A stretch of 64,000 nt of DNA from an uncultured delta proteobacterium (GTDB lineage Bacteria > Desulfobacterota > Binatia > UBA9968): positions 32,001 to 96,000 of the forward strand of contig CAVYTU010000009.1 in the NCBI GenBank assembly GCA_963771465.1. The letters are read 5' to 3'. The position numbers and the translations under genes were made by a program. Position 1 is the stretch's first letter; every line of letters begins with the position of its first letter. The notes under the pieces were generated by a model. The model was not told the DNA's origin. It made no database searches and was given only the letters and a program-made list of their open reading frames with translations. Of this stretch, positions 25,771-41,687 are shown piece after piece.

Positions 25771-26952
25771 TTAGGGCTGAAAACTGACGGAGGGCAATGG
25801 CGCCCCAGCAAGCCCGTCGCGCGCGTCGGCGGCGGTTAAATCAACGCGAGCGTCACGCCAAGCGAGATAATCGTCGAGACATTGAATCACGTCGGCGCAG
25901 TTGTTGACGCGCACCATTTTGGCGCGCAGCTCGGCCGCGCCGCGAAAATCGCGGCAATACCAGATCAAATGCTTGCGCATGCCGACGAAGTTGCGTTCTT
26001 GCACATAGGTTTCGAAATGACGCGCGTGCTCGACGATGACGCTGAAGCGCTCCGCCATGCTGATCGGCTCAATCGGCGCGGGCGGCGCGGACGCTAGCAA
26101 GGAACGCTTCAATTGATCTTTAACTTTGAATATCCATGGATTGCCTTCGGCCGCCCGGCCAAGCAAAACCCCATCGACGCCGCACTGACGCACTCGGCGA
26201 TAAACATCACCCATGTCACGGAGATCGCCATTGCCCAAGATGAGCGTTGGCTGTGCTTTGGCGATTTCGACCGCGCGCGCGATGGCATCCCAATCTGCGT
26301 CGCCTTTGTATCCTTGCTTGAGGGTGCGCCCATGAATGGAAATCGCCACCGGTTTTTCCTCGAGCAAGTTGGCAATCCAGTCTTCGATGACGATCTGATC
26401 GTAACCGATGCGGGTTTTCACTGACAACGGAATCGGGCGACGTACCGACGGCATCACCCAACCGCTGCGCTGTTGATTGGAAGCTTTAACTGTCTCACGA
26501 AGCTTCTGGCGCAAGCCCAACTGGTCGAGCGTCTGCCCCGCCACCCAATCGTCGATGCCCTGCCTTGTCTGCCGGATAATCTCGCGCGCCAATTCCGGCG
26601 TACGAATCAGTGCTGCCCCGCTACCCGAAGCGGCGACATTTTTTGCCGGGCAGCCCATGTTGATATCCAGACCATCGAACCCCAGCTCGCAGACCACGTG
26701 AGCGGCTTTGTAAAACAGTTCCGGCGTATGACCGTAGATCTGTGCGATGACTGGCCGTTCGATTTCTGAATAGGTGAAGTCGCGAATCAGCGTTTGCGGC
26801 GCATGAATGGCAGCGTCGACATTGGTAAATTCGGTGACCGTGATATCCGGTGCGCCATGTTTAGCCGCGATCCAGCGAAACGAAGCGTCGGTGACACCGT
26901 CCATCGGCGACAGGCCGATGATCGGTTTAGGTATGTCGTGCCAAAAACTCAT
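25771..26952 (-). CDS. dus: tRNA-dihydrouridine synthase
   Basis: LSPMDGVTD, DINMGCP, SVKTRIG, IHGRT, GNGD, GR.A.GNPW. Confidence 0.92.
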   Translation of the reverse strand: MSFWHDIPKPIIGLSPMDGVTDASFRWIAAKHGAPDITVTEFTNVDAAIHAPQTLIRDFTYSEIERPVIAQIYGHTPELFYKAAHVVCELGFDGLDINMGCPAKNVAASGSGAALIRTPELAREIIRQTRQGIDDWVAGQTLDQLGLRQKLRETVKASNQQRSGWVMPSVRRPIPLSVKTRIGYDQIVIEDWIANLLEEKPVAISIHGRTLKQGYKGDADWDAIARAVEIAKAQPTLILGNGDLRDMGDVYRRVRQCGVDGVLLGRAAEGNPWIFKVKDQLKRSLLASAPPAPIEPISMAERFSVIVEHARHFETYVQERNFVGMRKHLIWYCRDFRGAAELRAKMVRVNNCADVIQCLDDYLAWRDARVDLTAADARDGLAGAPLPSVSFQP

Positions 26953-27072
26953 GGGTAACTCGCCGGCTCAGTTTGACATTGCCGGGAGTGAAAATCCACA
27001 CTGATGCCGGTGACAGAGAGTCGATTCAATTGCTTAAGCGAGATCGTGGGGTCAATGCCGATGCCGACATTC

Positions 27073-27354
27073 TTAGCGCCGCTTTAAAATATCTTCGAGG
27101 CTCTTTCTATCCTCTTCCAAGATTTTTTCGCGCGGCCGATTGGCCGGCGCAGGGTCGGCCTTCTCGCTCTTATTCAGTTGACGCGATGTTTTGGTCACCG
27201 CCTTGGATCTATCAGCCCCACCGCTAAACAGTCGCGTCAGTTCGAACCAGTAGAACCAAACCAGGAACGCGATAAACCAAATGAATATCGGGAGAAAAAT
27301 GTACAACAGCAAACCTCGAAGCCAGCTGCGTTTCTTCCGCCTCTTCTGCGCCAT
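27073..27354 (-). CDS. small single-TM hypothetical protein
   Basis: basic N-terminus, TM helix, EKILEEDRKSLEDIL. Confidence 0.65.
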   Translation of the reverse strand: MAQKRRKKRSWLRGLLLYIFLPIFIWFIAFLVWFYWFELTRLFSGGADRSKAVTKTSRQLNKSEKADPAPANRPREKILEEDRKSLEDILKRR

Positions 27355-27464
27355 GTGAACTTGACCGACCTCGGCCCCCACCTTCCTGCGCCAAAAAACC
27401 AGCCGGCCAAATCGCCGCGGAATCCAGCACTGACGGGATGAAATTCGTTGCCGTGTAAGATGAA

Positions 27465-28415
27465 TCAGTACATCGGTTTGTGATCGAAATAGTGCGTCGC
27501 GTCGATCACCCGGATGGTTTTAGTCTTGGAGCGCATGACCACCGATTGGGTCGTCGCGCCGCCGGCGAAAAAATGAACGCCGCGTAGATAATCGCCGTCG
27601 GTCACGCCGGTGGCGGAAAACATAACATCACCTGCGGCTAGCTCGTCGAGCTGGAATTTTTTCTTGATGTCCGCCACGCCCATTTTCTTCGCGCGCTCGA
27701 TCTCTTCGTTATTGCGCGGCGCCAGCCGGCCCTGGAATTCGCCGCCGACGCAGCGCATTGCGGCGGCGGCCAGCACGCCTTCGGGCGCGCCGCCGATACC
27801 GAGCAATAAGTCGATGCCGGTATCCGGCTTGGTGGTCGCGATCGCCGCCGACACGTCGCCGTCGCCGATCAAGCGAATGCGCGCGCCCGCTTTACGCACC
27901 TCGGCGATGAGCGAGTCATGGCGCGGGCGGGCAAGAATAATCACCATAAGATCTTCTACCTTGCAGCGCTTGGCTTCGGCCAAAGCGCGCAGATTTTCGG
28001 TCGGCGATTTGTCCAGATCGACGACGCCTTTGCCGGCCGGGCCGCAAGCGATCTTCGCCATATAGGTGTCGGGGCAGTGCAAGAGATTGCCACCGTCGGC
28101 CATGGCAAGAACCGCTAGCGCGTTGGGGCCGCCTGTGGCGCAGATCGTCGTGCCTTCCAGCGGATCGAGAGCGATGTCGACTTTAGGACCGCCGGAGCCG
28201 ACTTTCTCACCGATGTATAGCATCGGCGCCTCGTCGCGCTCGCCCTCGCCGATCACTACCGTACCGTCGATGGACAAAGCATCGAAGGCTTTACGCATGG
28301 CGTCCACCGCGGCTTGATCCGCCGCCTTTTCATCGCCGCAGCCGGTCAAGCGCGCGCAATTGAGCGCCGCCGCTTCGGTAACTCGCACCGCTTCCAGGGC
28401 TAGATTTCTGTCCAT
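27465..28415 (-). CDS. glpX: class II fructose-1,6-bisphosphatase
   Basis: RVTEAAA, GEGERDEAPML, DPLEGT, DGDV, GGAPEG, ATGVT. Confidence 0.96.
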   Translation of the reverse strand: MDRNLALEAVRVTEAAALNCARLTGCGDEKAADQAAVDAMRKAFDALSIDGTVVIGEGERDEAPMLYIGEKVGSGGPKVDIALDPLEGTTICATGGPNALAVLAMADGGNLLHCPDTYMAKIACGPAGKGVVDLDKSPTENLRALAEAKRCKVEDLMVIILARPRHDSLIAEVRKAGARIRLIGDGDVSAAIATTKPDTGIDLLLGIGGAPEGVLAAAAMRCVGGEFQGRLAPRNNEEIERAKKMGVADIKKKFQLDELAAGDVMFSATGVTDGDYLRGVHFFAGGATTQSVVMRSKTKTIRVIDATHYFDHKPMY

Positions 28416-29629
28416 GTCGGTCTCCCTTCGATGAGCGATTCCATCAAACGATAAGCTTGCTTGGCCACTACGCCGGTTTTCGCCGCATCTTTTTCGTTAT
28501 ACCCAACGGCGCCGTTGTCGCGTGGCTCGGCTGGAGAATAGAGTACGAACGGCACCGGGTCCGAAACGTGGGTTTTGAGCGCGATGGCGGTTGGATGATC
28601 GGGCATCAAGAGAATGCGAAAATCCTTGCGGCCGGCCATCCCTTTCAACACCGTGCCGACAACTTTCTCGTCAAAATCCTCCAGCGCTTGTATCTTAGCT
28701 TTGACATCGCCCATGTGGCCGGCTTCGTCGGTGGCTTCGACGTGAATGAAGACCAAGTCGTTTTTCTCCAGCGAGCGCACACCGTACTCGCCCTTGCCAA
28801 TATAGTTGGTATCGAGAAACCCGGTAATGCCGGGAACATCGATGCGCTCCAGGCCGGCGTAAACACCCAGGCCGTGAATGATATCGACGGCGGAAATCAC
28901 TCCACCGGTGATACCGAAGCGTTTGGTCAACGGCGGCATTTGCGGCGCCCGACCTTGACCCCAGAGCCAGATCGTCGTTGCTTGGCGTTTACCGTCGGCC
29001 TGCCGCTGCTTATTTACGCGATGATTCGCCAGCAGCGGCTCAGACGCCGCCATCAAATGCAGCAAGCGATCGGCGCCTTCGCCTTTGGGGATATAGCCGG
29101 CGGTTTTTTGGTCGGTGATATCGTGCGGCGGCGTGGTTGCCATCTTTTCCTTGCCGTCACGCCAAACCATCAAATGGCGATAACTGACGCCCGGGAAAAA
29201 TTCGATACCGTCGCCGCCGAGTTGTTTTCCCAAGTCTTGAATAATCTCCGCCGCTTCCTCAGTCGTGATGTGACCCGACGTGAAGTCCTCCATGGTCGTC
29301 CCATCGCCGCTGCCACACAAGGTAACCAAATTGCAGCGAAAGGCGATGTCTTTGGGACCGAGCGCCACGCCCATGCTTGCGGCTTCGAGCGGTGAGCGGC
29401 CGGTGTGATAAAGCGCCGGATCGTAGCCCATGATGCTCATGTTGCCGACATCGCTGCCTGGCGGAAAACCCTCGGGGATGACATGGGCGATGCCGTACAC
29501 GCCGCGCTGCGCCAGCCAGTCCATGTTCGGTGTGCGCGCCGCTTCGAGCGGCGTCTTACCCCCGAGAATCTCGAGCGGATAATCAGCCATGCCATCGCCT
29601 TGAAGAATGATGTATTTCACTTGTGCCAA
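28400..29629 (-). CDS. apgM: cofactor-independent phosphoglycerate mutase family (ApgM; possibly homoserine kinase-type)
   Basis: DGMAD, GKTPL, PGSD, GRSPLEA, SYRH, PPHD, DEAGH, PDH.T, H..DPVP. Confidence 0.9.
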   Translation of the reverse strand: MAQVKYIILQGDGMADYPLEILGGKTPLEAARTPNMDWLAQRGVYGIAHVIPEGFPPGSDVGNMSIMGYDPALYHTGRSPLEAASMGVALGPKDIAFRCNLVTLCGSGDGTTMEDFTSGHITTEEAAEIIQDLGKQLGGDGIEFFPGVSYRHLMVWRDGKEKMATTPPHDITDQKTAGYIPKGEGADRLLHLMAASEPLLANHRVNKQRQADGKRQATTIWLWGQGRAPQMPPLTKRFGITGGVISAVDIIHGLGVYAGLERIDVPGITGFLDTNYIGKGEYGVRSLEKNDLVFIHVEATDEAGHMGDVKAKIQALEDFDEKVVGTVLKGMAGRKDFRILLMPDHPTAIALKTHVSDPVPFVLYSPAEPRDNGAVGYNEKDAAKTGVVAKQAYRLMESLIEGRPTWTEI

Positions 29630-29653
29630 CCGCCTTGAAAATTTGCTGTCCGG

Positions 29654-31048
29654 CTAATACGCGCCCCAGATCGGAAACCACACCGGATCGACTACGATAT
29701 AGTCTCGATTGCGTACGGAATCCAGAGCCTTGCGCATTTGCTTCAACGTCGCGCGCTCCAAAGTCATCACGAAGGGCAGGACTTGTTGCGCCTTCGGCTT
29801 GAACTTGTAGCTCTGCATCAAACTGCGCAGCTCGTCGTCGACGTGGCGCAACTGCCAAATCTCGGAAATATTCACACCGGAGCGGCCGAAGGCCTGGCCG
29901 ATATCGCCGACAATCCCGGCATGATCTTTCACCACGAAGCGGACGTAAAACGGCACGTCAATGTCATCTTCGGCTTGCAGCGTCAGCGTCCCCGGCGCAA
30001 TCAGACTCGGCGCGCCGCTAAACTTGCGCTCGCCGCGCGCCAGCTCGGAGACGTCGCCGAGCACCGCTACTGCCGTCGGCCCGCCGCCGGCGCCGGGACC
30101 GACCAAAACGTAGTCGCAGTCGCGCTCGCCGCGGCCGGCGCTGCTGCTTTTGCCGGCGAAACAGACAGCGTTCATCGCACCGTCGACACTGCCGAGGAAA
30201 CTTTCTGCGGCAACCAAAGCGGGCGAAACGAAAACTTGAACCGAGCGGCCTCTACGCCGCGCCACGGCCAGCTGTTTGATGGTGCTGTTACCGATGCGTT
30301 TAGCGTAGCGAAAGTCGACCGCCTGGATATCCTCGATGCCCTTGCGCCAAATCTTACCGGGTTGGATTTCGAGACCGAAGCCGACCAGACTGAGCAGCAG
30401 CAACTTGGCTTCGGCATCGCTGCCATTGACGTCGGCAGCCGGATTGGTTTCGGCGTAACCCTTCTGCTGCGCTTCTTTGAGCGCTTCGCCGTAGGGTTTA
30501 CCGCCCTTTTCCATTTGCGAAAGTATGTAATTGCAGGTGCCGTTGACGATGCCAAAAATCGCTTCCGGTTCTTCGACCGCGAAACTCTCGCTCAGCGATC
30601 GAATCACCGGGATGCCCCCGCCAACGCAGGCTTCGAAACGAAGCTGCTGCCCGGCTTTCTTGGCCGCCGCCCATATCTGTTTGCCATAACGAGCCAGTAC
30701 CGCTTTGTCGGAAGTGACCACCGATTTGCCATTGCGAAAAGCGCGTAAGATGTAATCGCGAAACTGTGGCAGCTGGGAGGCGGACTGAAAGCCCAACGCT
30801 TCAATGACGATGTCGACGCCGGGATGATCGAGCACGTCTTCGGCACGGTTGGTAAAAAGCGCCCGGTGTTTGCCGAACCATTTTTTACCGTCCGGGCTGC
30901 GCGTATAGATTTTGCGAATTTCTAGCTCGATCGCGTCACCGACTTGGCCCTTGAGATCGCGAAAAAGAATATCCTGGATCGCCTCGCCCACCACACCGGA
31001 GCCGAGCAGGCCGACGCCGACTTTACGCCGTTTGTTCGCTGTTGCCAT
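29654..31048 (-). CDS. hom: homoserine dehydrogenase with C-terminal ACT domain
   Basis: GLLGSGVVG, FEACVGGGIP, GIVNGTCNYIL, GYAE.NP..D..G.D...K, GPGAGG.PTA. Confidence 0.93.
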   Translation of the reverse strand: MATANKRRKVGVGLLGSGVVGEAIQDILFRDLKGQVGDAIELEIRKIYTRSPDGKKWFGKHRALFTNRAEDVLDHPGVDIVIEALGFQSASQLPQFRDYILRAFRNGKSVVTSDKAVLARYGKQIWAAAKKAGQQLRFEACVGGGIPVIRSLSESFAVEEPEAIFGIVNGTCNYILSQMEKGGKPYGEALKEAQQKGYAETNPAADVNGSDAEAKLLLLSLVGFGLEIQPGKIWRKGIEDIQAVDFRYAKRIGNSTIKQLAVARRRGRSVQVFVSPALVAAESFLGSVDGAMNAVCFAGKSSSAGRGERDCDYVLVGPGAGGGPTAVAVLGDVSELARGERKFSGAPSLIAPGTLTLQAEDDIDVPFYVRFVVKDHAGIVGDIGQAFGRSGVNISEIWQLRHVDDELRSLMQSYKFKPKAQQVLPFVMTLERATLKQMRKALDSVRNRDYIVVDPVWFPIWGAY

Positions 31049-31086
31049 TGGGAAAAATGCTAGCCGCCGGGAAAATAGAATGGGGA

Positions 31087-32265
31087 CTAGTCGAGGAGTT
31101 TGCCGAGCGCCCGTTTGATTTTACGCACCGCCTGCTTGGTGCGATGCTCGTTTTCAATCAGCGCGAAACGGACATGCTCGTCGCCATACTGGCCGAAACC
31201 GATGCCCGGCGAGACGGCGACCTGAGCTTCCTGGAGCAAGTATTTGGCAAACTCCACGGAACCCATCTTCTTCGCCGGCTCGGGAATTTCCGCCCAGACA
31301 AACATCGTCCCCTTGGGTCTGGGAATATGCCAGCCGGCGCGGTCGAGACCGTCGAGCAAGGAATCGCGCCGTTTGCGATACATCGAACAAATCTCTTCGA
31401 CGCAGTCCTGCGGCCCGTTGAGCGCCTGAATCGCGGCGATCTGAATCGGCTGAAAAATACCATAGTCGAGATAGCTCTTGATGCGCGCCAAGGCGTGGAC
31501 AATCTCCTTGTTGCCGACGCAAAAACCGACGCGCCAGCCCGGCATGTTGTAACTCTTGGACAGCGAGAAAAATTCGACGCCGACATCCTTGGCGCCGGCA
31601 GCCTGCAGGAAACTCGGCGCCTGATAACCGTCAAAGGTCAGATCGGCATAAGCGAGATCATGCACGACGATGAATTCATGTTCCTTGGCGACTTTGACGA
31701 CGCGCTCGAAAAAATCGAGCTCGACGACTTGGGTGGTTGGATTGTGTGGAAAGCTGATGATCAACATTTTCGGCTTGGGCCAAGTCTGTCGAATCGCTTC
31801 TTCGAGACGGCCGAAGAACTCTTCACTGGTCGTAAGCGGAATGCAGCGCAAATCGCCGCCGGCGAGGACCACCGCATATTGATGGATCGGATAAGTCGGG
31901 CTCGGGCAAAGAATCACATCGCCGGGATCGATGGTCGCCCAGGCGAGATGGGATAACCCCTCTTTGGCACCGATGGTGACGATCGCCTCGCTGTCCGGAT
32001 CGATGTCGATATCATAACGCCGCTTGTACCAACCGGCGATGGCGCAACGCAGCTTATAAATACCGCGGGAAACCGAGTAGCGGTGATTAGCGGGCTTGGA
32101 TGCGGCCTCGATCAACTTTGCCACCACATGTGGCGGCGTGGGCAAATCGGGATTGCCCATGCCGAAGTCAACGATGTCTTCGCCCCTATGCCGCGCTTCC
32201 ATCTTCATGCCATCGATGATGCTGAAGACATAGGGCGGCAGCCGCTTTATCCGCTGAAATTCCAC
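31087..32265 (-). CDS. alaC: class I/II aminotransferase AlaC
   Basis: [51 protein letters not shown]. Confidence 0.9.
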
Positions 32266-32391
32266 GCTCGCTACCTTATCCTTTCTGGAATTGGGAAAAT
32301 GTTTTTCTATTTATAAGGCATCACTTGAGTCCGTGCAAACAGACAATACTTGCTAGGTCCAAACCCGGAAAACCGTGCGGCATCGCTGTGG

Positions 32392-34596
32392 TTATCCCAC
32401 CGTTCCCAACTGCAAACGCTTACCCCATCGATGCCTAAGCAACTCGCGCATGCCGGCCGACTCTTTGCTTTTCAACTGCGGATCTTTATCCAGCCACGCC
32501 AGAGCTTCTTGGCGCGCTTCGATTAGCAAACGCGCGTCGCGGATGAGATTGGCCAAACGAAAGTCTACTAATCCTGATTGCCGGGTGCCGAGAAATTCGC
32601 CAGGGCCGCGCAGTTGGAGGTCGGCTTCGGCGATTTTGAAGCCATCGGATTCCTTTTCCATTACGCGCAAGCGTTCACCTGCGACCGTGCCGCCGGCGCC
32701 GTGATTGACGAGAAAGCACAATCCCGCTGCGCTGCCGCGCCCGACCCGCCCACGCAGCTGATGGAGTTGCGATAGGCCGAAACGCTCGGCGTGCTCGACG
32801 ACGATCACCGTTGCGTTCGAAATGTCGATGCCGACTTCGATGACGGTGGTGGCGACGAGAATGGCTAGCTTGCCGTCTCGGAACTCGCGCATGACGGCGT
32901 CGCGCTCATCCGTCTTCATCCGGCCATGGGCCAAACCGACGCCGAAATCCTTGAACATCGTCTGGCGCATCTTCTCGGCCATCTGCGTGGCGTCGCGCAC
33001 TTCTTGGAGCTGCTCGGACGCTTCAACTAGGGGCAAGACGACGAAAGCCTGATGGCCGCGCTTGAGCTCTTCGAGCACCAGCGAATAAAGCTGCTTGCGT
33101 TCCCGCTCGGCAAAAACTTTTGTCCGAATCGGCGTCCGCCCCGGCGGCATTTCATCGACGTAGGAGACTTCCATGTCGCCGTAGAGCACCATGGCGAGAC
33201 TGCGCGGGATCGGCGTCGCGCTCATGAGCAATATATGCGGCTCGCGCTTGCCGGCGGCGGCACCGACCAACTGCTGCAGCGACAAGCGCTGCATGACGCC
33301 GAAGCGATGCTGCTCGTCGATGACGCCCAAGCCCATGAGCGGCATGCGCACCTCGTCTTGAATCAAAGCATGGGTGCCGACGATGAATTGGATCTCGCCG
33401 TTGGCGATGCGCGGGAGCAAAACTTTGCGTTCGCGCGCCGGCGTCGACGCCGTGAGCAGCGCAGCTGAAACGCCAAGCGCGTGCGCGAACGTCAGCAAAT
33501 TGCGAAAATGCTGTTCGGCGAGCATTTCTGTCGGCGCCATCCAGACCGCCTGGTGACCCTGTTCGATCACTTGCAGGGAAGCCAGCCAGGCCACCATGGT
33601 TTTGCCGGAACCGACATCGCCTTGCACCAGGCGGTGCATGGGATGATCAGCCGCGAGGTCGTTTTGGATTTCCCCCAGCACCCGCGCTTGCGCGCCGGTG
33701 AGCTTGAACGGCAGTAGCTGGTGCATACGCATGGACAGCTTGTCGTTGCGTCCCGACATTCTGGGACCCGAGCTGCGCCGCCGCCAGTGTTTGCGCAAGC
33801 CCAGGCCCAATTGCAGAAAGAACAACTCTTCGAACACAATCGTGCGATGTGCCGGCGACGCCGCTTCGTTCAGGGCGTCCAAATCGACGTCGAGCGGCGG
33901 TTGGTGCAGCTGCGCCAAGGCGGTGGATACGGATAACAAACCTTGGCGTTTGGCAATCGCTGGCGGCAGCCGATTAGGTACGCAGCCGCCAAACTGTGCG
34001 AGCGCCTGCCCGGCCAATTTACGAATGAACGATAAGGGTAACCCGCCCGGCCGCAAATAAACCGGCAGCACCCGGCGCAGGCTCGCATCGTCGCCGGCGT
34101 CGATCACCTCAAAGTCGGGGTGAACGATGCGCATTCTCATCTGCTGGCCGTGCTCGACTTTGCCGTGGACGAGCAGCGTCTGGCCTTTTGCCAAGCCACT
34201 GACCAAAAAACTTGGCGCGCGATACCAAACTAGATCAAGCGCCGCGGTGTCGTCGCGCACGGTCGCGGTCATCAACTGCATGCGCCGGCGCGGAATGAAT
34301 CGGCTTTGCAACATCACCAACTCGCCGACAAAACTCTCCTCCTGACCCAACTCCGCGGCGGCAATTTTCTTGAGTAGGCGCCGATCCTCGTAACGAAACG
34401 GCAAGTGATAGAGAATATCTTCGACCGTGCTCAAGCCGCTCGCTTCGAGCAACTCGGCGCGCTTGGGTCCGACCCCTTTCAAATCCTGAACCGGTGTCGC
34501 CAAGGCGCGCAGACGTTCGCGCATGGTGACAGGAGGAATCGGCTCGGCGGGATTGTCAGGCGGATTGGCTGTGACGGTAGTCATGGAATCACTCAC
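32392..34596 (-). CDS. recG: ATP-dependent DNA helicase RecG
   Basis: wedge domain, QGDVGSGKT, DEQH, SATPIPR, QLRGRVGRG, DL.LRGPGE. Confidence 0.97.
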   Translation of the reverse strand: MSDSMTTVTANPPDNPAEPIPPVTMRERLRALATPVQDLKGVGPKRAELLEASGLSTVEDILYHLPFRYEDRRLLKKIAAAELGQEESFVGELVMLQSRFIPRRRMQLMTATVRDDTAALDLVWYRAPSFLVSGLAKGQTLLVHGKVEHGQQMRMRIVHPDFEVIDAGDDASLRRVLPVYLRPGGLPLSFIRKLAGQALAQFGGCVPNRLPPAIAKRQGLLSVSTALAQLHQPPLDVDLDALNEAASPAHRTIVFEELFFLQLGLGLRKHWRRRSSGPRMSGRNDKLSMRMHQLLPFKLTGAQARVLGEIQNDLAADHPMHRLVQGDVGSGKTMVAWLASLQVIEQGHQAVWMAPTEMLAEQHFRNLLTFAHALGVSAALLTASTPARERKVLLPRIANGEIQFIVGTHALIQDEVRMPLMGLGVIDEQHRFGVMQRLSLQQLVGAAAGKREPHILLMSATPIPRSLAMVLYGDMEVSYVDEMPPGRTPIRTKVFAERERKQLYSLVLEELKRGHQAFVVLPLVEASEQLQEVRDATQMAEKMRQTMFKDFGVGLAHGRMKTDERDAVMREFRDGKLAILVATTVIEVGIDISNATVIVVEHAERFGLSQLHQLRGRVGRGSAAGLCFLVNHGAGGTVAGERLRVMEKESDGFKIAEADLQLRGPGEFLGTRQSGLVDFRLANLIRDARLLIEARQEALAWLDKDPQLKSKESAGMRELLRHRWGKRLQLGTVG

Positions 34597-37896: not shown

Positions 37897-39057
37897 CTAG
37901 CCTCGATGTTTTGCCATCATGTCGGTGAAGCGTTTGAACAAATAATCGGCGTCATGGGGTCCGGGCGACGATTCCGGGTGATACTGGATGGAAAATAAGG
38001 GTAGTTCGCGATGCGCCAAACCCTCCACCGTGTTGTCGTTGAGATTCAAGTGGGTCACTTGCACCGCGCCGCCAAGGGAATCGGCGTCCACGGCGAAGCC
38101 ATGATTTTGCGCGGTGATTTCGACCTTGCGTGTGGTCAGGTCCATGACCGGCTGATTGCCGCCGTGATGGCCAAACTTGAGTTTGAAAGTTTTGCCGCCA
38201 AGCGCCAAACCCATGATTTGATGCCCGAGGCAAATGCCGAAGATCGGCTTTGTGCCGATGAGCTTTTGCACGTTATCTTTGGCGTAGGGCACCGCATCGG
38301 GATCGCCTGGCCCATTGGAGAGAAAAATTCCATCGGGATTGAGCGCCAGAACTTCTTCAGCCGGCATCGTCGCCGGAACGACTTTAACCTGGCAGCCGGA
38401 CTCGGCGAGATTGCGCAGGATGTTGTACTTGATGCCAAAATCGTAGGCGACGACAAAATAATTCGGCGCAGCGAAGCTCGCTTTGCCGCGCCGCTTAGCG
38501 ATTTTGCCGCCATCGCGCTGCTTGTAACCGCCGCTCAGTCCCCACATCCCTTGGTTCCAGTCGTAGGCCTCGTCGCAGGTCACGTTCTTGACCAGATCGA
38601 CTCCAATCAATCCCGGCGACGCCTTGGCTTTGGCGACAAGCTCCGCCGGATTCGAATTGACCGTTGAGATAATTCCATCCTGGGCGCCGTGATCGCGCAG
38701 ATGGCGCACCAGCGATCGTGTGTCGATGCCCTGAATGCCGACGATGCCGTTCGTTTGCATGTATTCATGCAGCGGCTCGCGCGCGCGCCAGTTGCTCGGC
38801 TGCGCCGTGTAGTCTTTGACGATGAAGCCGCGCACGAAGGGTTTGCGCGATTCGACATCTTCTAAATTAACCCCAACATTGCCGATCTGCGGATAAGTCA
38901 TCGCCACCAATTGCCCTTCGTAAGACGGATCGGTGAGGATTTCTTGGTAGCCGGTCATGCTAGTGTTGAAAACCACCTCGCCGATCGCTTCGCCCTCCGC
39001 GCCGAAAGCGAGACCTTCGAAATATTTGCCGTCCGCCAGTGCTAAAATCGCTTTCAT
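37897..39057 (-). CDS. carA: carbamoyl-phosphate synthase small subunit
   Basis: GEVVFNT.MTGYQE, SNGPGDP, GICLGHQ, QYHPE. Confidence 0.98.
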
Positions 39058-39059
39058 TA

Positions 39060-41024
39060 TTATGACCGCGCCGCCTTTTTTTCCCCACCGGCACTCGGCG
39101 ACTTCACGGCGTCCGCCGGGCCGATGACCGAGAAGATCACCACTTGATCTTTTTCTTCCTGTTCCAAGCCGCGCAGCTTCACCCGTACGCGATCTTTCTC
39201 GGAGCTGGGAATATTCTTGCCGACATAGTTCGGTTTCACGGGGACTTCGCGATGGCCGCGATCGATCAACACCGCCAACCGCACCGACTGCGGCCGGCCC
39301 GAACGAAAAATAATGCTCAGCGCACTCTTGACCGTGCGGCCGGTGTGGACGACGTCGTCGACTAGAATCACTTCGCGGTCTTTGAGGCTGAGCGGCGCGG
39401 CGTCTGGATCGGCTGGCGCCAGACGCTTGATCTCGTCGCCCGAGCCGTAAATTTCGATCTCGCCCAATTCGATTTTACGCTTGCGCTGGGTTTCGATTTC
39501 CGCGGCGATGCGCTGCGCCAACTGCGAGCCGACGCTGCGCACGCCGAGAATCAGCAAGCGATCCGGATCGCGGCAGTCGCGCAAAATTTGCCGGCTCATC
39601 TCCGCCAACGCCGAGGCGATTTCCACGTCATTCATGAGCGCCCGCTGCGGCCCGCTTTTTATCGGCTCGTAGCCAAGCTCTTCGGCTTCCTTGATCGAAT
39701 TGAAGATCGCCAGTTGTTTCTTCTCCAGCCAGCCGTCAATCTGGCCGGCGAGCGAATGATCATAGGAGCAATAGCGTTTGCTCTTCACGTCACCGACAAA
39801 CTGCACCTTGAAGCGATGATCGCAATAAGCGCAGCCAAGGATCAGCGTGCCGTTCTCGCCCACGGTGAACAATTCGAAACGCTTATCGGTCGACACCGGC
39901 TCTTTCAGAGTCACGCAGTTGGGATTGTGACACTGCGGTCCGAGCTTCTCCGGACTTTTGTAGGCGGGCGCTTTGTTAATTGGCGCGGCGGCTTTAGCCT
40001 CACGCCGGTCAAAGAGAAACTTTAGTAGCGCCATGCGCACCGGCACGCCGTAAGCCGCCTGTTTGAAATAAATTCCGCGCCAGTCTCTGTCCAGTTCCGG
40101 CGATAGCTCGTCGACTCGCGGCAGCGGATGCATGACCACGGTGTCTTGAAAACGCTGCTCGCGCAAAAACTCCGGACCGATGGTCGGGTAACTGGCGTCG
40201 GCCGCGCCGTCCTTCATGCGCTCTTTTTGCTTACGCGTCATGTAAAAGGCGTCGTAGCGCAGACCGGTCGCCAACGAATTCAATCGTGCTTGAATCACCT
40301 CATCGACTTGGGTGAAGAGCGCCAACTGATGCGGCTGCTTGGGGGTTAAATATAAGGCGTCAGTTTCCGTCATCACGGCACTCAAGTCATCGGACGCCAT
40401 CGGCGCCAGAGCGTAATCATATTCCCGCTCCAAGCGTTCAAGCACATATTGCGGCAGCTCCATGCCGTTGGCCGCCAAGGTGACCACGTTGGCGCCAAAG
40501 CGCGCCAGCGCGAATACCAGAGAATGAATCGTCCGGCCGTTTTTGAGATCGCCGCACACGACCACTGTCAAACCTTTGAGCGCGCCCTTTTCTTGGCGTA
40601 GCGTGTAGAGATCGCACAGCGTCTGGGTCGGATGCTCATGACCGCCATCGCCGGCATTGATGACCGGCACGTCGGCGTGCTCGGCCATCGCTTGCACCGC
40701 GCCGTCCCAATTGTGGCGCACCACGAGAACGTCGGCGTAGGCCGAAACCACCTTGGCGGTATCCGCCAGGGTTTCTCCTTTCGCCACGGAAGACGACTTC
40801 ATGTCCGAGCAGCTGATCACCGAGCCACCCAAACGCTGCATGGCCGACTCGAACGACAACCGGGTACGCGTGCTCGGCTCGTAGAAGAGCGTCGCCATGA
40901 TCTGGCCGTTTGCCGGACACTCAGACCGTAATCGCTGGGCCGTATCGGCCAAAGAAAAAATCTCTTCGATCTCGTCGTTGGTCAGGTCGGCTATGGAAAT
41001 TAAGCTGCGCATTTCAGTTCGCAT
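39060..41024 (-). CDS. pyrB: aspartate carbamoyltransferase fusion: PyrB + PyrI Zn domain + Ada-N-like module + PyrR-like PRT domain
   Basis: [35 protein letters not shown] (aa 1-340); CHNPNC...CAYC (365-401); [20 protein letters not shown] (460-634); start may be the ATG at 41012. Confidence 0.92.
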
Positions 41025-41571
41025 TTCGGCCTTGCCAATCGGCGACGATCACTTGGTCGACGCCATCCGACTCTGCCAACAATACGTTGACCCGTTGGCC
41101 ATCCTGGGCATCGATATTTTTACCGACAACGTCGGCACGGATCGGCAGCTCCCGGGCGCCGCGATCGATCAAGACCGCGACAAGAATTCGTTTGGGCCGG
41201 CCAAGCCGCTCCACCGCCTCCATCGCCGCGCGAATGGTCCGGCCGCGAAAGATCACGTCGTCGATCAGGACTACGACTTTGTCGTCGACCGCGACTTGGA
41301 CTTCGAAAGCGCCGACAGCCGGCAATTCCGATCGCTGGCTTCGGTCATCACGATAGGGCGTGACATCGATAACGCCGACCGGCGGCGCCAGGTGATTCAT
41401 TTCCTCAAGCTTGCGCGCCAGCCGGCGCGCCAAATGCACCCCGCGTGAGCGAATCCCGATGAGCACCAATTCACGAGGTGTTGACGCCTTCTCGACAATC
41501 TCATGCGCCATCCGCGTGATGACCCGGACGAGATCGTCGCCCTGCAAGACAATTTTTCGCTCTTGGGCCAT
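41014..41571 (-). CDS. pyrR: pyrimidine operon attenuation protein PyrR
   Basis: ITRMAHEI, GIRSRG, DVTPYRDD, LIDDVIFRGRT, DRG.RELPIRAD.VGK. Confidence 0.93.
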   Translation of the reverse strand: MAQERKIVLQGDDLVRVITRMAHEIVEKASTPRELVLIGIRSRGVHLARRLARKLEEMNHLAPPVGVIDVTPYRDDRSQRSELPAVGAFEVQVAVDDKVVVLIDDVIFRGRTIRAAMEAVERLGRPKRILVAVLIDRGARELPIRADVVGKNIDAQDGQRVNVLLAESDGVDQVIVADWQGRNAN

Positions 41572-41608
41572 AAAAAAAGACTCCGTCGGCGTTACCGAGA
41601 GAGTCTTT
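41572..41608 (-). terminator. attenuator terminator of the pyr leader, overlapping the pyrR SD
   Basis: minus strand AAAGACUC-UCUCGGUAACGCCGACG-GAGUCUUUUUUU, directly before the pyrR ATG. Confidence 0.8.
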
Positions 41609-41642
41609 GCGCGCGCGAATTATGTAAGTAAATTTTGCTCAT
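41592..41642 (-). CDS. putative 16-aa leader peptide MSKIYLHNSRAQRLSR
   Basis: ATG 4 nt after GGAAAAGG; stop TAA in the terminator loop. Confidence 0.45.
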   Translation of the reverse strand: MSKIYLHNSRAQRLSR

Positions 41643-41646
41643 GTCG

Positions 41647-41679
41647 CCTTTTCCGATCTCGCAGGATCGAATTAAAAGG
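41647..41679 (-). promoter_or_regulatory. PyrR-binding stem-loop
   Basis: CCUUUUAAUUCGAUCCUGCGAGAUCGGAAAAGG matches the CUUUAA / UCCnGnGAG PyrR-site pattern. Confidence 0.82.
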
Positions 41680-41687
41680 TATGAGTT

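Follow-up and report, generated by a model that had tools for sequence, protein, structure and literature searches.

Aspartate transcarbamoylase (ATCase) is a classic model of allostery, and its catalytic chain is PyrB. The fused ATCase of Thermotoga maritima carries the whole of the regulatory chain PyrI, including its nucleotide-binding domain. A 2015 review of the transcarbamylases describes three prokaryotic quaternary types in addition to the Thermotoga fusion (Chen et al. 1998); in bacteria, the catalytic chain is associated with PyrI or with a dihydroorotase-like chain, or forms a trimer that is not regulated. PyrR, which regulates the same pathway at the level of RNA, is active as a dimer and has UMP/UTP and GTP/GMP as ligands; according to a review, the UMP-bound dimer binds the leader via a basic concave surface, and GMP/GTP antagonises this binding. 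Here, we describe a gene in which these two worlds meet. It lies in a stretch of 64,000 nucleotides (nt), hereafter the window, that comprises positions 32,001 to 96,000 of contig CAVYTU010000009.1 from the genome of an uncultured Binatia bacterium (assembly GCA_963771465.1). The gene encodes a single chain consisting of PyrB, a linker, the zinc domain of PyrI, a small module (X), and a PyrR-derived domain. The best explanation, to which we assign a probability of roughly 55%, is that this protein is the working ATCase of the cell and acts as a nucleotide-tuned hexamer.

Like the class B ATCase of Escherichia coli, which is built from two PyrB trimers and three PyrI dimers, the window protein possesses a catalytic chain of the PyrI-associated kind, a four-cysteine (Cys4) zinc domain matching the regulatory chain in sequence and predicted fold, and, attached to this zinc domain, a dimerising nucleotide-binding domain, although the dimer is a prediction here. 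However, it is one polypeptide without the N-terminal nucleotide domain of PyrI, its nucleotide-binding domain is a PyrR/phosphoribosyltransferase (PRT) fold that follows the zinc domain towards the C-terminus, with an extra module in between, and an insertion of approximately 30 amino acids (aa) precedes the strand carrying R264 and Q266. The T. maritima PyrB-PyrI fusion likewise unites catalytic and regulatory parts in one chain, but the window protein reaches only 89.9 bits with the corresponding model NF009916, whose cut-off is 800. The PyrR proteins of Bacillus subtilis and B. caldolyticus resemble the C-terminal domain in family score, in the loop for 5-phosphoribosyl-1-pyrophosphate (PRPP), in the DRGHRE stretch, and in a predicted dimer through the REVPVKPN loop. 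However, the window domain is part of an enzyme rather than a free protein of ~180 aa, and unlike free PyrRs, it has replaced residues in the first helix and in the YRDD loop and is adjoined by a genuine free PyrR. The plant ATCase inhibited by UMP (PDB 6ypo), which appeared among the PDB and Foldseek matches, would share pyrimidine feedback without PyrI; there, UMP presumably acts on the catalytic trimer itself, with no added domain. No published description of a PyrR-ATCase fusion was found among titles and the starts of abstracts, with subscription journals and supplements outside the search, and the word "phosphoribosyl" has 0 occurrences in the available part of the 2015 review. The PyrR-coupled ATCase therefore looks like an undescribed way to control a textbook allosteric enzyme, as had been supposed in an earlier note on this DNA, written from the letters alone, whose author knew of no description.

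Domain architecture of the fused protein

The N-terminal part of the protein matches ATCase catalytic chains. Pfam OTCace_N was found at aa 6-144 (E 4.3e-51) and OTCace in two stretches (E 1.2e-18, the best at 265-336), and the ATCase models TIGR00670 (NCBIfam) and NF002032 were exceeded with 292.6 bits (cut-off 236.95) and 279.2 bits (cut-off 263), respectively. In a sequence search of the PDB, the best matches of this part were the chains of M. jannaschii and P. abyssi, followed by that of E. coli. An AlphaFold2 monomer computed with the family alignment (mean predicted local distance difference test (pLDDT) 79.3, predicted template modelling score 0.68) gave ATCase catalytic chains as its best Foldseek matches, with TM-scores by target of 0.76-0.86. 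In the family alignment A3, which comprises 53 sequences with 44-83% identity to the window protein, STRTR 51-55, R103-H104, HPTQ 131-134, R164, R264, Q266, and HPLPR 299-303 are invariant. We take the motifs STRTR, HPTQ, the R of GRT, the R..Q of TRxQ, and HPLP to form the carbamoyl-phosphate/aspartate site; the complete ATCase active site proposed in the earlier note is thus borne out, all of its motifs being invariant in the 53 sequences. The hidden Markov models of ATCase match in two stretches because an insertion at about aa 228-258, which is absent from the ATCase family model, interrupts the aspartate domain. The strand leading up to R264/Q266 is nearly repeated ahead of the insertion (YLTPxxPHQ versus YMTRKQKER), and the insertion motif (D222, Y225, P228, H232, and Q233) is kept both in A3 and in a sister family without PyrR; pLDDT values fall below 50 at aa 229-245 and 250-253.

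Behind the linker, the Pfam domain PyrI_C (PF02748) was matched with 31.4-33.8 bits (cut-off 23.4) and was present in 50/50 family members. The four cysteines show exactly the spacing read from the sequence in the earlier note (C365-x4-C370...C398-x2-C401) and are invariant in A3. A separate model of aa 352-468 (pLDDT 76.6) matched the E. coli regulatory chain in Foldseek over the zinc part only (43 columns, root-mean-square deviation 1.4-2.2 Å), with a probability of 0.99 and an E of about 0.1, a value explained by the shortness of the matched stretch. A profile search of PDB sequences with the region of zinc domain and module X (Zn-X) returned PyrI chains only (E 1.8e-4), unrelated chains appearing at chance level (E 0.44-0.85). 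The nucleotide domain of PyrI (PF01948) had 0 matches in the fused protein and in the whole genome, in a search that found this domain in 7/14 named control genomes.

Module X, noticed before as a segment of ~50 aa following the zinc domain, is conserved at about aa 407-462. Its predicted elements run strand-strand-strand-helix-strand-helix, and W432, L438, F441, A447, P454, and R461 are invariant in A3. It has no significant fold or sequence match in Pfam, the PDB profile search, Foldseek, or the ESM Atlas. The designation "Ada-like", proposed earlier for this module, could not be maintained. Ada_Zn_binding (PF02805) reaches 13.2 bits in the window protein (cut-off 23, E 0.092) and matches 6/50 family members (best E 0.029), which amounts to a sub-threshold hint, and the PDB profile search and Foldseek lists for the Zn-X region contain PyrI zinc domains and no Ada chains. 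Moreover, module X lacks a Cys4 set, with at most one conserved cysteine (C419), which is a tyrosine in the Binataceae clade.

The C-terminal PyrR/PRT domain, placed at aa ~460-634 in the earlier note, is confirmed by matches to Pfam Pribosyltran at aa 468-606 (E 3.9e-18) and to the PyrR equivalog NF003549, which gave 150.3 bits at aa 461-630 (cut-off 138). The three better-scoring of the other PyrR models remained under their cut-offs (138.6 vs 230, 136.8 vs 218, and 112.4 vs 268). PyrR chains in the PDB match at E 1e-27 to 1e-32, with ~40% identical positions in the aligned blocks. The PRPP loop comprises 13 residues at aa 552-564, and D556, D557, V558, G562, T564, R577, P578, R592, P595, P598, and K603 are invariant within this domain in A3.

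A comparison of the fused domain (72 sequences) with the operon PyrR of the same loci (38 sequences), numbered according to the free PyrR of the window, separates features that were kept from features that were replaced. The PRPP loop (DDV..[TS]G.T), the DRG.RE stretch, and K146/K151 are kept in fused and free proteins alike. By contrast, the fused domains carry other residues at R16, R20, E24, E27, Y73-R74-D75-D76, and D147, all of which show little or no variation in free PyrRs; R20 has become S, Q, or E, K/R28 has become D or E, and D147 has become N. The Y-R-D-D loop, invariant in 36-38 of the 38 operon PyrRs, is lost, and the mean net charge of the first helix is -1.8 in the fused domain versus +1.8 in free PyrR. 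We tentatively assign R16, R20, K/R28, and the YRDD positions to the RNA binding of PyrR, for which the review gives a basic concave surface. In a quick tree built from the 38 operon PyrRs, 25 of the 72 fused domains found at the loci, and the distant fused forms P0123, P0136, and P0153, 27/28 fused domains formed one group (Shimodaira-Hasegawa-like approximate likelihood-ratio test 90) and 38/38 operon PyrRs another (94), with P0153 as a long branch outside the fused group. A recent duplication of the neighbouring pyrR is not indicated by this tree, whose backbone is poorly supported, as fused and operon PyrRs were not placed as sisters.

The earlier note had also proposed that the PyrR domains pair, and the structure model predicts such pairing. 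Two copies of aa 355-640 reached an interface score (ipSAE) of 0.55, against 0.05 for the best control, with at least 91% contact agreement between runs and a partner pLDDT of at least 77. The mark for a dimer was reached by 20/30 proteins solved as one-chain pairs and by 1/23 solved as single chains. The predicted interface (554, 565-573, 578-583, and 592-599) lies in the PyrR domain only, uses the REVPVKPN loop, and includes the invariant residues R592, P595, and P598.

Occurrence and origin of the fusion

The open reading frame (ORF) list of the window contains the fused gene as a single frame of 654 aa at 39060..41024 (-) with no internal stop, in agreement with the uninterrupted ORF reported earlier, and the guanine-plus-cytosine (GC) content across the gene is even (0.55-0.61). 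Two in-frame ATGs occur at its 5' end: the first (41024, 654 aa) overlaps the last codons of the upstream pyrR, and the second (41012, 650 aa) stands just past the pyrR stop. The N-termini of relatives read MR(N/S)LISIADL and fit the second ATG, so that the true start of the fused protein may be at 41012, giving 650 aa.

The same architecture is widespread in independent assemblies. A search with the C-terminal 325 aa yielded at least 500 proteins at E <= 0.001 (8000 candidates scored); among the 120 matches listed, 106 are 635-665 aa long and 120/120 carry OTCace and Pribosyltran Pfam domains. Species-representative genomes were scanned with two peptide patterns from module X and the relatives were then confirmed, giving 115 genomes that encode the Zn-X stretch, of which the best 80 were retained. 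Uninterrupted full-length frames of 634-662 aa, from other genomes that are mostly Candidatus Binatia, were present at 71/87 loci examined, and the architecture is thus shared well beyond the genome in which it was first noticed. Another 4/87 loci are without the N-terminal motif (owing to a cut contig or another reason), and the remaining 12/87 are cut or, in three long-read bins (L073, L075, and L077), frameshifted. Near-identical DNA occurs in soil and rhizosphere metagenomes, where 13 runs hold at least half of the sampled words. Among the soil-metagenome contigs, which come from other studies, one of 1648 nt (run X5) covers 39249-40896 without an insertion or deletion, and a 486-nt contig from an RNA library (X12) covers 39602-40087, including the end of the ATCase part, the zinc domain, module X, and the start of the PyrR domain; X12 is no proof of transcription, because DNA can occur in such libraries. 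No insertions or deletions were listed for the independent contigs crossing the junctions, and every junction is crossed by independent soil contigs; gaps in the cover by single metagenome contigs carry no meaning. Two proteins that resembled a split form with a stand-alone Zn-X-PyrR subunit (P0121, 327 aa; P0128, 313 aa) were rejected as cut gene calls because their first residue is the internal methionine of the final ATCase helix (MALLKF.. and MALIAW.., respectively). An artefact is excluded, and the PyrB-linker-zinc domain-X-PyrR architecture is real.

Most records of the relatives are labelled Candidatus Binatia, Binataceae, or Binatus, or bear the older label Deltaproteobacteria; a few are labelled Syntrophobacteraceae, Verrucomicrobiia, Udaeobacter, or Acidiferrales. 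In a survey of 41 relatives including the own genome (one of them, G005, unpublished), the full C-terminal part was present in 24/25 genomes of the genus, two of these being cut by contig ends, and the genus genome G004 gave PyrR-level matches only. A second family contains the full part in 4/5 genomes and a fragment in the fifth, and a third family of the same order contains it in 0/11 genomes. The fused architecture is inherited through several Binatia families. Across a sample of the phylum, the Zn-X stretch occurs in 6/301 genomes, or in 4/259 of good quality. In five fusion-less kin of the same order or class (G026, G028, G037, G078, and G150, from families f3, f4, and f6), PyrI_C is absent and the catalytic part finds best matches of no more than 35-46% identity; therefore, the fused gene is no simple extension of the ATCase of all kin. 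These findings suggest that it arrived by gene displacement or transfer rather than by simple descent. Distant fused forms also exist, with 53% (P0123), 36% (P0136), and 35% (P0153) identity in the C-terminal part, the P0153 clade comprising 6 proteins.

Searches with the catalytic part alone revealed a sister family of proteins of ~447-474 aa with OTCace and PyrI_C and no Pribosyltran (P0339, P0364, P0387, P0341, P0384, and P0378), some of which are named Chloroflexota, Planctomycetota, or Planctomycetes. These six proteins are 48-50% identical to the window protein over its first 470 aa and have in common with it the insertion motif DAxYxTPxxPHQ...DALYxTRxQKER, the four cysteines, and the X tail LxxFxSxxxAxxxGF/Y. 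They end after module X and contain neither PyrR nor the PyrI nucleotide domain. Since this family carries Zn-X without PyrR, Zn-X forms an independent unit, and, as far as can be judged from the sequences, PyrR was most likely appended to an older PyrB-Zn-X fusion. The earlier view that the allosteric domain of PyrI had been "replaced" by a PyrR fold, i.e., that PyrR was exchanged for the N-terminal domain of PyrI, is therefore not followed here.

Operon and genome setting

The own genome is 99.4% complete, with 6.3% contamination, and contains a single ATCase above the TIGR00670 cut-off, namely the fused gene, which also holds its only match to PyrI_C (PF02748). A second TIGR00670 match, a 336-aa frame with 137.9 bits, lies below the cut-off and is probably an ornithine carbamoyltransferase. 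The fused ATCase is argued to be active because it is the sole ATCase over the cut-off in a genome of this completeness.

The fused gene sits in a pyrR-fused pyrB-carA-carB operon behind a PyrR-type attenuator (Table 1). The stop codon of pyrR either overlaps the beginning of the fused gene or directly adjoins it, and the operon junctions measure 0-2 nt. The leader match has an E of 2.4e-4 over 9.5 kb and of 1.3e-5 over 0.5 kb, and within the leader a binding loop and a GC-rich terminator hairpin can be recognised, together with a U-run that reaches as far as the start codon of pyrR. Classical attenuation by PyrR, or else regulation of translation initiation, thus seems to have been retained in the operon next to the fused domain. 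Among related loci whose fused gene has a complete 5' end preceded by 600 nt or more, pyrR is located upstream in 68/68; of all loci counted, it is upstream in 72/78, L069 and L077 having been dropped by the thresholds of the count. Downstream, carA was found in 60/60 related loci with more than 2.6 kb of sequence. At 23 loci of the Binataceae clade, a gene of ~1.4 kb stands between the fusion and carA (in L081, at L081:4582-6189, a dihydroorotase-like amidohydrolase); the window lineage has no gene at this place.

Table 1. Coordinates of the fused gene, its domains, and the other parts of the operon in the window.
Feature	Residues (aa)	Position (nt)	Strand	Basis or remark
Fused ATCase gene		39060..41024	(-)	654 aa; stop TAA at 39060-39062
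ATCase catalytic chain (PyrB)	1-340	40005..41024	(-)	Pfam OTCace_N and OTCace; TIGR00670; Foldseek
Family-specific insertion of ~30 aa in the aspartate domain	228-258	40251..40343	(-)	Split hidden Markov model match; A3
Poorly conserved linker	341-363	39936..40004	(-)	A3; block pLDDT 57 at 341-350
PyrI-type zinc domain	364-406	39807..39935	(-)	PyrI_C match; C365, C370, C398, C401
Conserved small module X	407-462	39639..39806	(-)	A3; predicted structure
PyrR-family phosphoribosyltransferase domain	463-634	39123..39638	(-)	NF003549; PDB PyrR chains
Unconserved low-confidence C-terminal tail	635-654	39063..39122	(-)	A3; AlphaFold2
Free-standing pyrR, 185 aa		41014..41571	(-)	NF003549, 199.2 bits; directly upstream of the fused gene
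PyrR-binding leader		41570..41683	(-)	Rfam RF00515, 48.1 bits; gathering score (54) not reached
carA-like gene		37897..39057	(-)	Named by translation similarity; separated by 2 nt from the fused-gene stop
carB-like gene, 1076 aa		34657..37887	(-)	ORF list

A third PyrR-like paralogue of 180-184 aa (G000:C17:316673-317191; L098:4165-4707, -) is encoded outside any pyr operon. It matches Pribosyltran and, weakly, uracil phosphoribosyltransferase, and adjoins genes for M20/M28 peptidase-like and NMT1-like proteins; similar frames of 184 aa occur in several genomes of the genus. No clear upp was found in the own genome, where the best match to PF14681 has 26.8 bits (28.8 with frame neighbours) against a cut-off of 27, and salvage could rely on any one of the three proteins of PyrR type. 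Downstream of carB, the region 25771-34596 (-) contains housekeeping genes of an ordinary kind, for a RecG-like helicase, a class I/II aminotransferase, a homoserine dehydrogenase, a phosphoglycerate mutase-like protein, a GlpX-type fructose-1,6-bisphosphatase, and a dihydrouridine synthase.

Proposed mechanism and alternative explanations

As the nucleotide-tuned hexamer that we favour, the protein would work as follows. Its chains would form catalytic trimers, as in every ATCase, and by analogy with PyrB-PyrI of E. coli the zinc domain would dock on the catalytic chain. The PyrR-derived domains, pairing two by two as the model predicts, would tie two trimers into a hexamer and would thereby take on the role that the dimerising nucleotide-binding domain plays in PyrI. 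These domains would have given up RNA binding, which would be left to the free PyrR encoded upstream, and would have kept the 5-phosphoribosyl/nucleotide pocket, where a bound pyrimidine or purine nucleotide or PRPP would set ATCase activity. Such an assembly would mirror the E. coli dodecamer within one chain type. Judged from conserved residues, nucleotide-sensing allostery of the fused ATCase is plausible, and cross-talk could arise if the fused domain pairs with free PyrR. Of the interpretation offered in the earlier note, the architecture is confirmed, and the lack of the PyrI nucleotide domain, the kept PRPP loop, and the predicted dimer agree with it, whereas "replaced" and "Ada-like" are not supported.

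Several observations weigh against this mechanism. The nucleotide-binding domain is C-terminal of the zinc domain, behind module X, which reverses the order in PyrI, so that a relay with E. coli-like geometry cannot be assumed. The sister family possesses Zn-X without any nucleotide-binding domain, and the zinc domain therefore need not relay a signal. The PRPP loop reads SGWT rather than TGRT in 21-22 of the 72 fused domains (Binataceae clade), and the DRGHRE stretch is altered in P0153. Overall charge does not separate fused from free domains, with a median isoelectric point of 7.25 versus 6.66 and a median net charge of 0 in both; a loss of RNA binding consequently rests on the local substitutions. 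Finally, the predicted dimer, computed with a self-made alignment, may reflect the model's memory of solved PyrR dimers.

The first alternative is a bifunctional enzyme, in which the PyrR-like domain works as a phosphoribosyltransferase, for uracil or another substrate, and was joined to ATCase for the sake of co-expression without controlling it. The invariant PRPP loop and a genome without a clear upp agree with this explanation. However, the Y-R-D-D loop is lost in the fused domains, the two other PyrR paralogues of the genome could supply the activity, and the zinc domain and module X would have no role in a simple enzyme-enzyme fusion, making a bifunctional enzyme unlikely. We consider it equally unlikely that the PyrR-derived domain, perhaps together with module X, is a structural clamp that joins two trimers and binds ligands without regulatory meaning. 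The confinement of the predicted interface to the PyrR domain, the sister family that manages with Zn-X alone, and the variation of the loop between TGRT and SGWT would all suit a clamp, but pure scaffolding leaves unexplained why the ligand-loop residues D556, D557, G562, and T564 do not vary among 53 sequences whose identity falls to as little as 44%. A tethered RNA regulator, in which the fused domain binds the pyr leader RNA or free PyrR and thereby couples the abundance or state of the enzyme to attenuation, appears more doubtful still: a PyrR-type leader is present in the same operon, the domain exceeds the PyrR equivalog cut-off, and H134, R135, and K146 (DRGHRE...GK) are kept in it, yet the basic positions of the first helix have become acidic or neutral and a dedicated free PyrR is always encoded upstream. 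An artefact, in which separate genes are joined by misassembly, a frameshift, or an overlooked stop, is extremely improbable. Nothing was found in its favour; a few relatives from long-read bins (L073, L075, and L077) have broken frames, and it is opposed by 71 uninterrupted frames from other assemblies, independent contigs over every junction, an even GC content, and the identification of stand-alone P0121 and P0128 as cut gene calls.

Going beyond the nucleotide-tuned hexamer as such, the protein could define a fourth type of ATCase holoenzyme in bacteria, a homohexamer whose PyrR-derived domain, joined via the zinc domain of PyrI and a new small module, takes over the function of the PyrI nucleotide domain, so that ATCase is tuned by UMP/UTP versus GTP/GMP or by PRPP; we put this forward tentatively, at somewhat less than even odds. 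If true, it would be a natural swap of the regulatory domain in a textbook allosteric enzyme, while a free PyrR of the same fold would set transcription of the operon from the same metabolites. Current annotations name these proteins "aspartate carbamoyltransferase catalytic subunit" or PyrR, which hides the fused architecture, although precomputed Pfam annotations do show the combination of domains. In this widespread soil lineage, a PyrR duplicate would have been recruited from RNA regulation to an enzyme, and both levels of control in the pathway, gene and enzyme, might respond to the same ligands. The coupling of the zinc adaptor domain to a different nucleotide-binding fold would constitute a natural experiment, one that asks how a regulatory signal may be re-wired into an unchanged catalytic machine and whether the zinc domain is a general adaptor.

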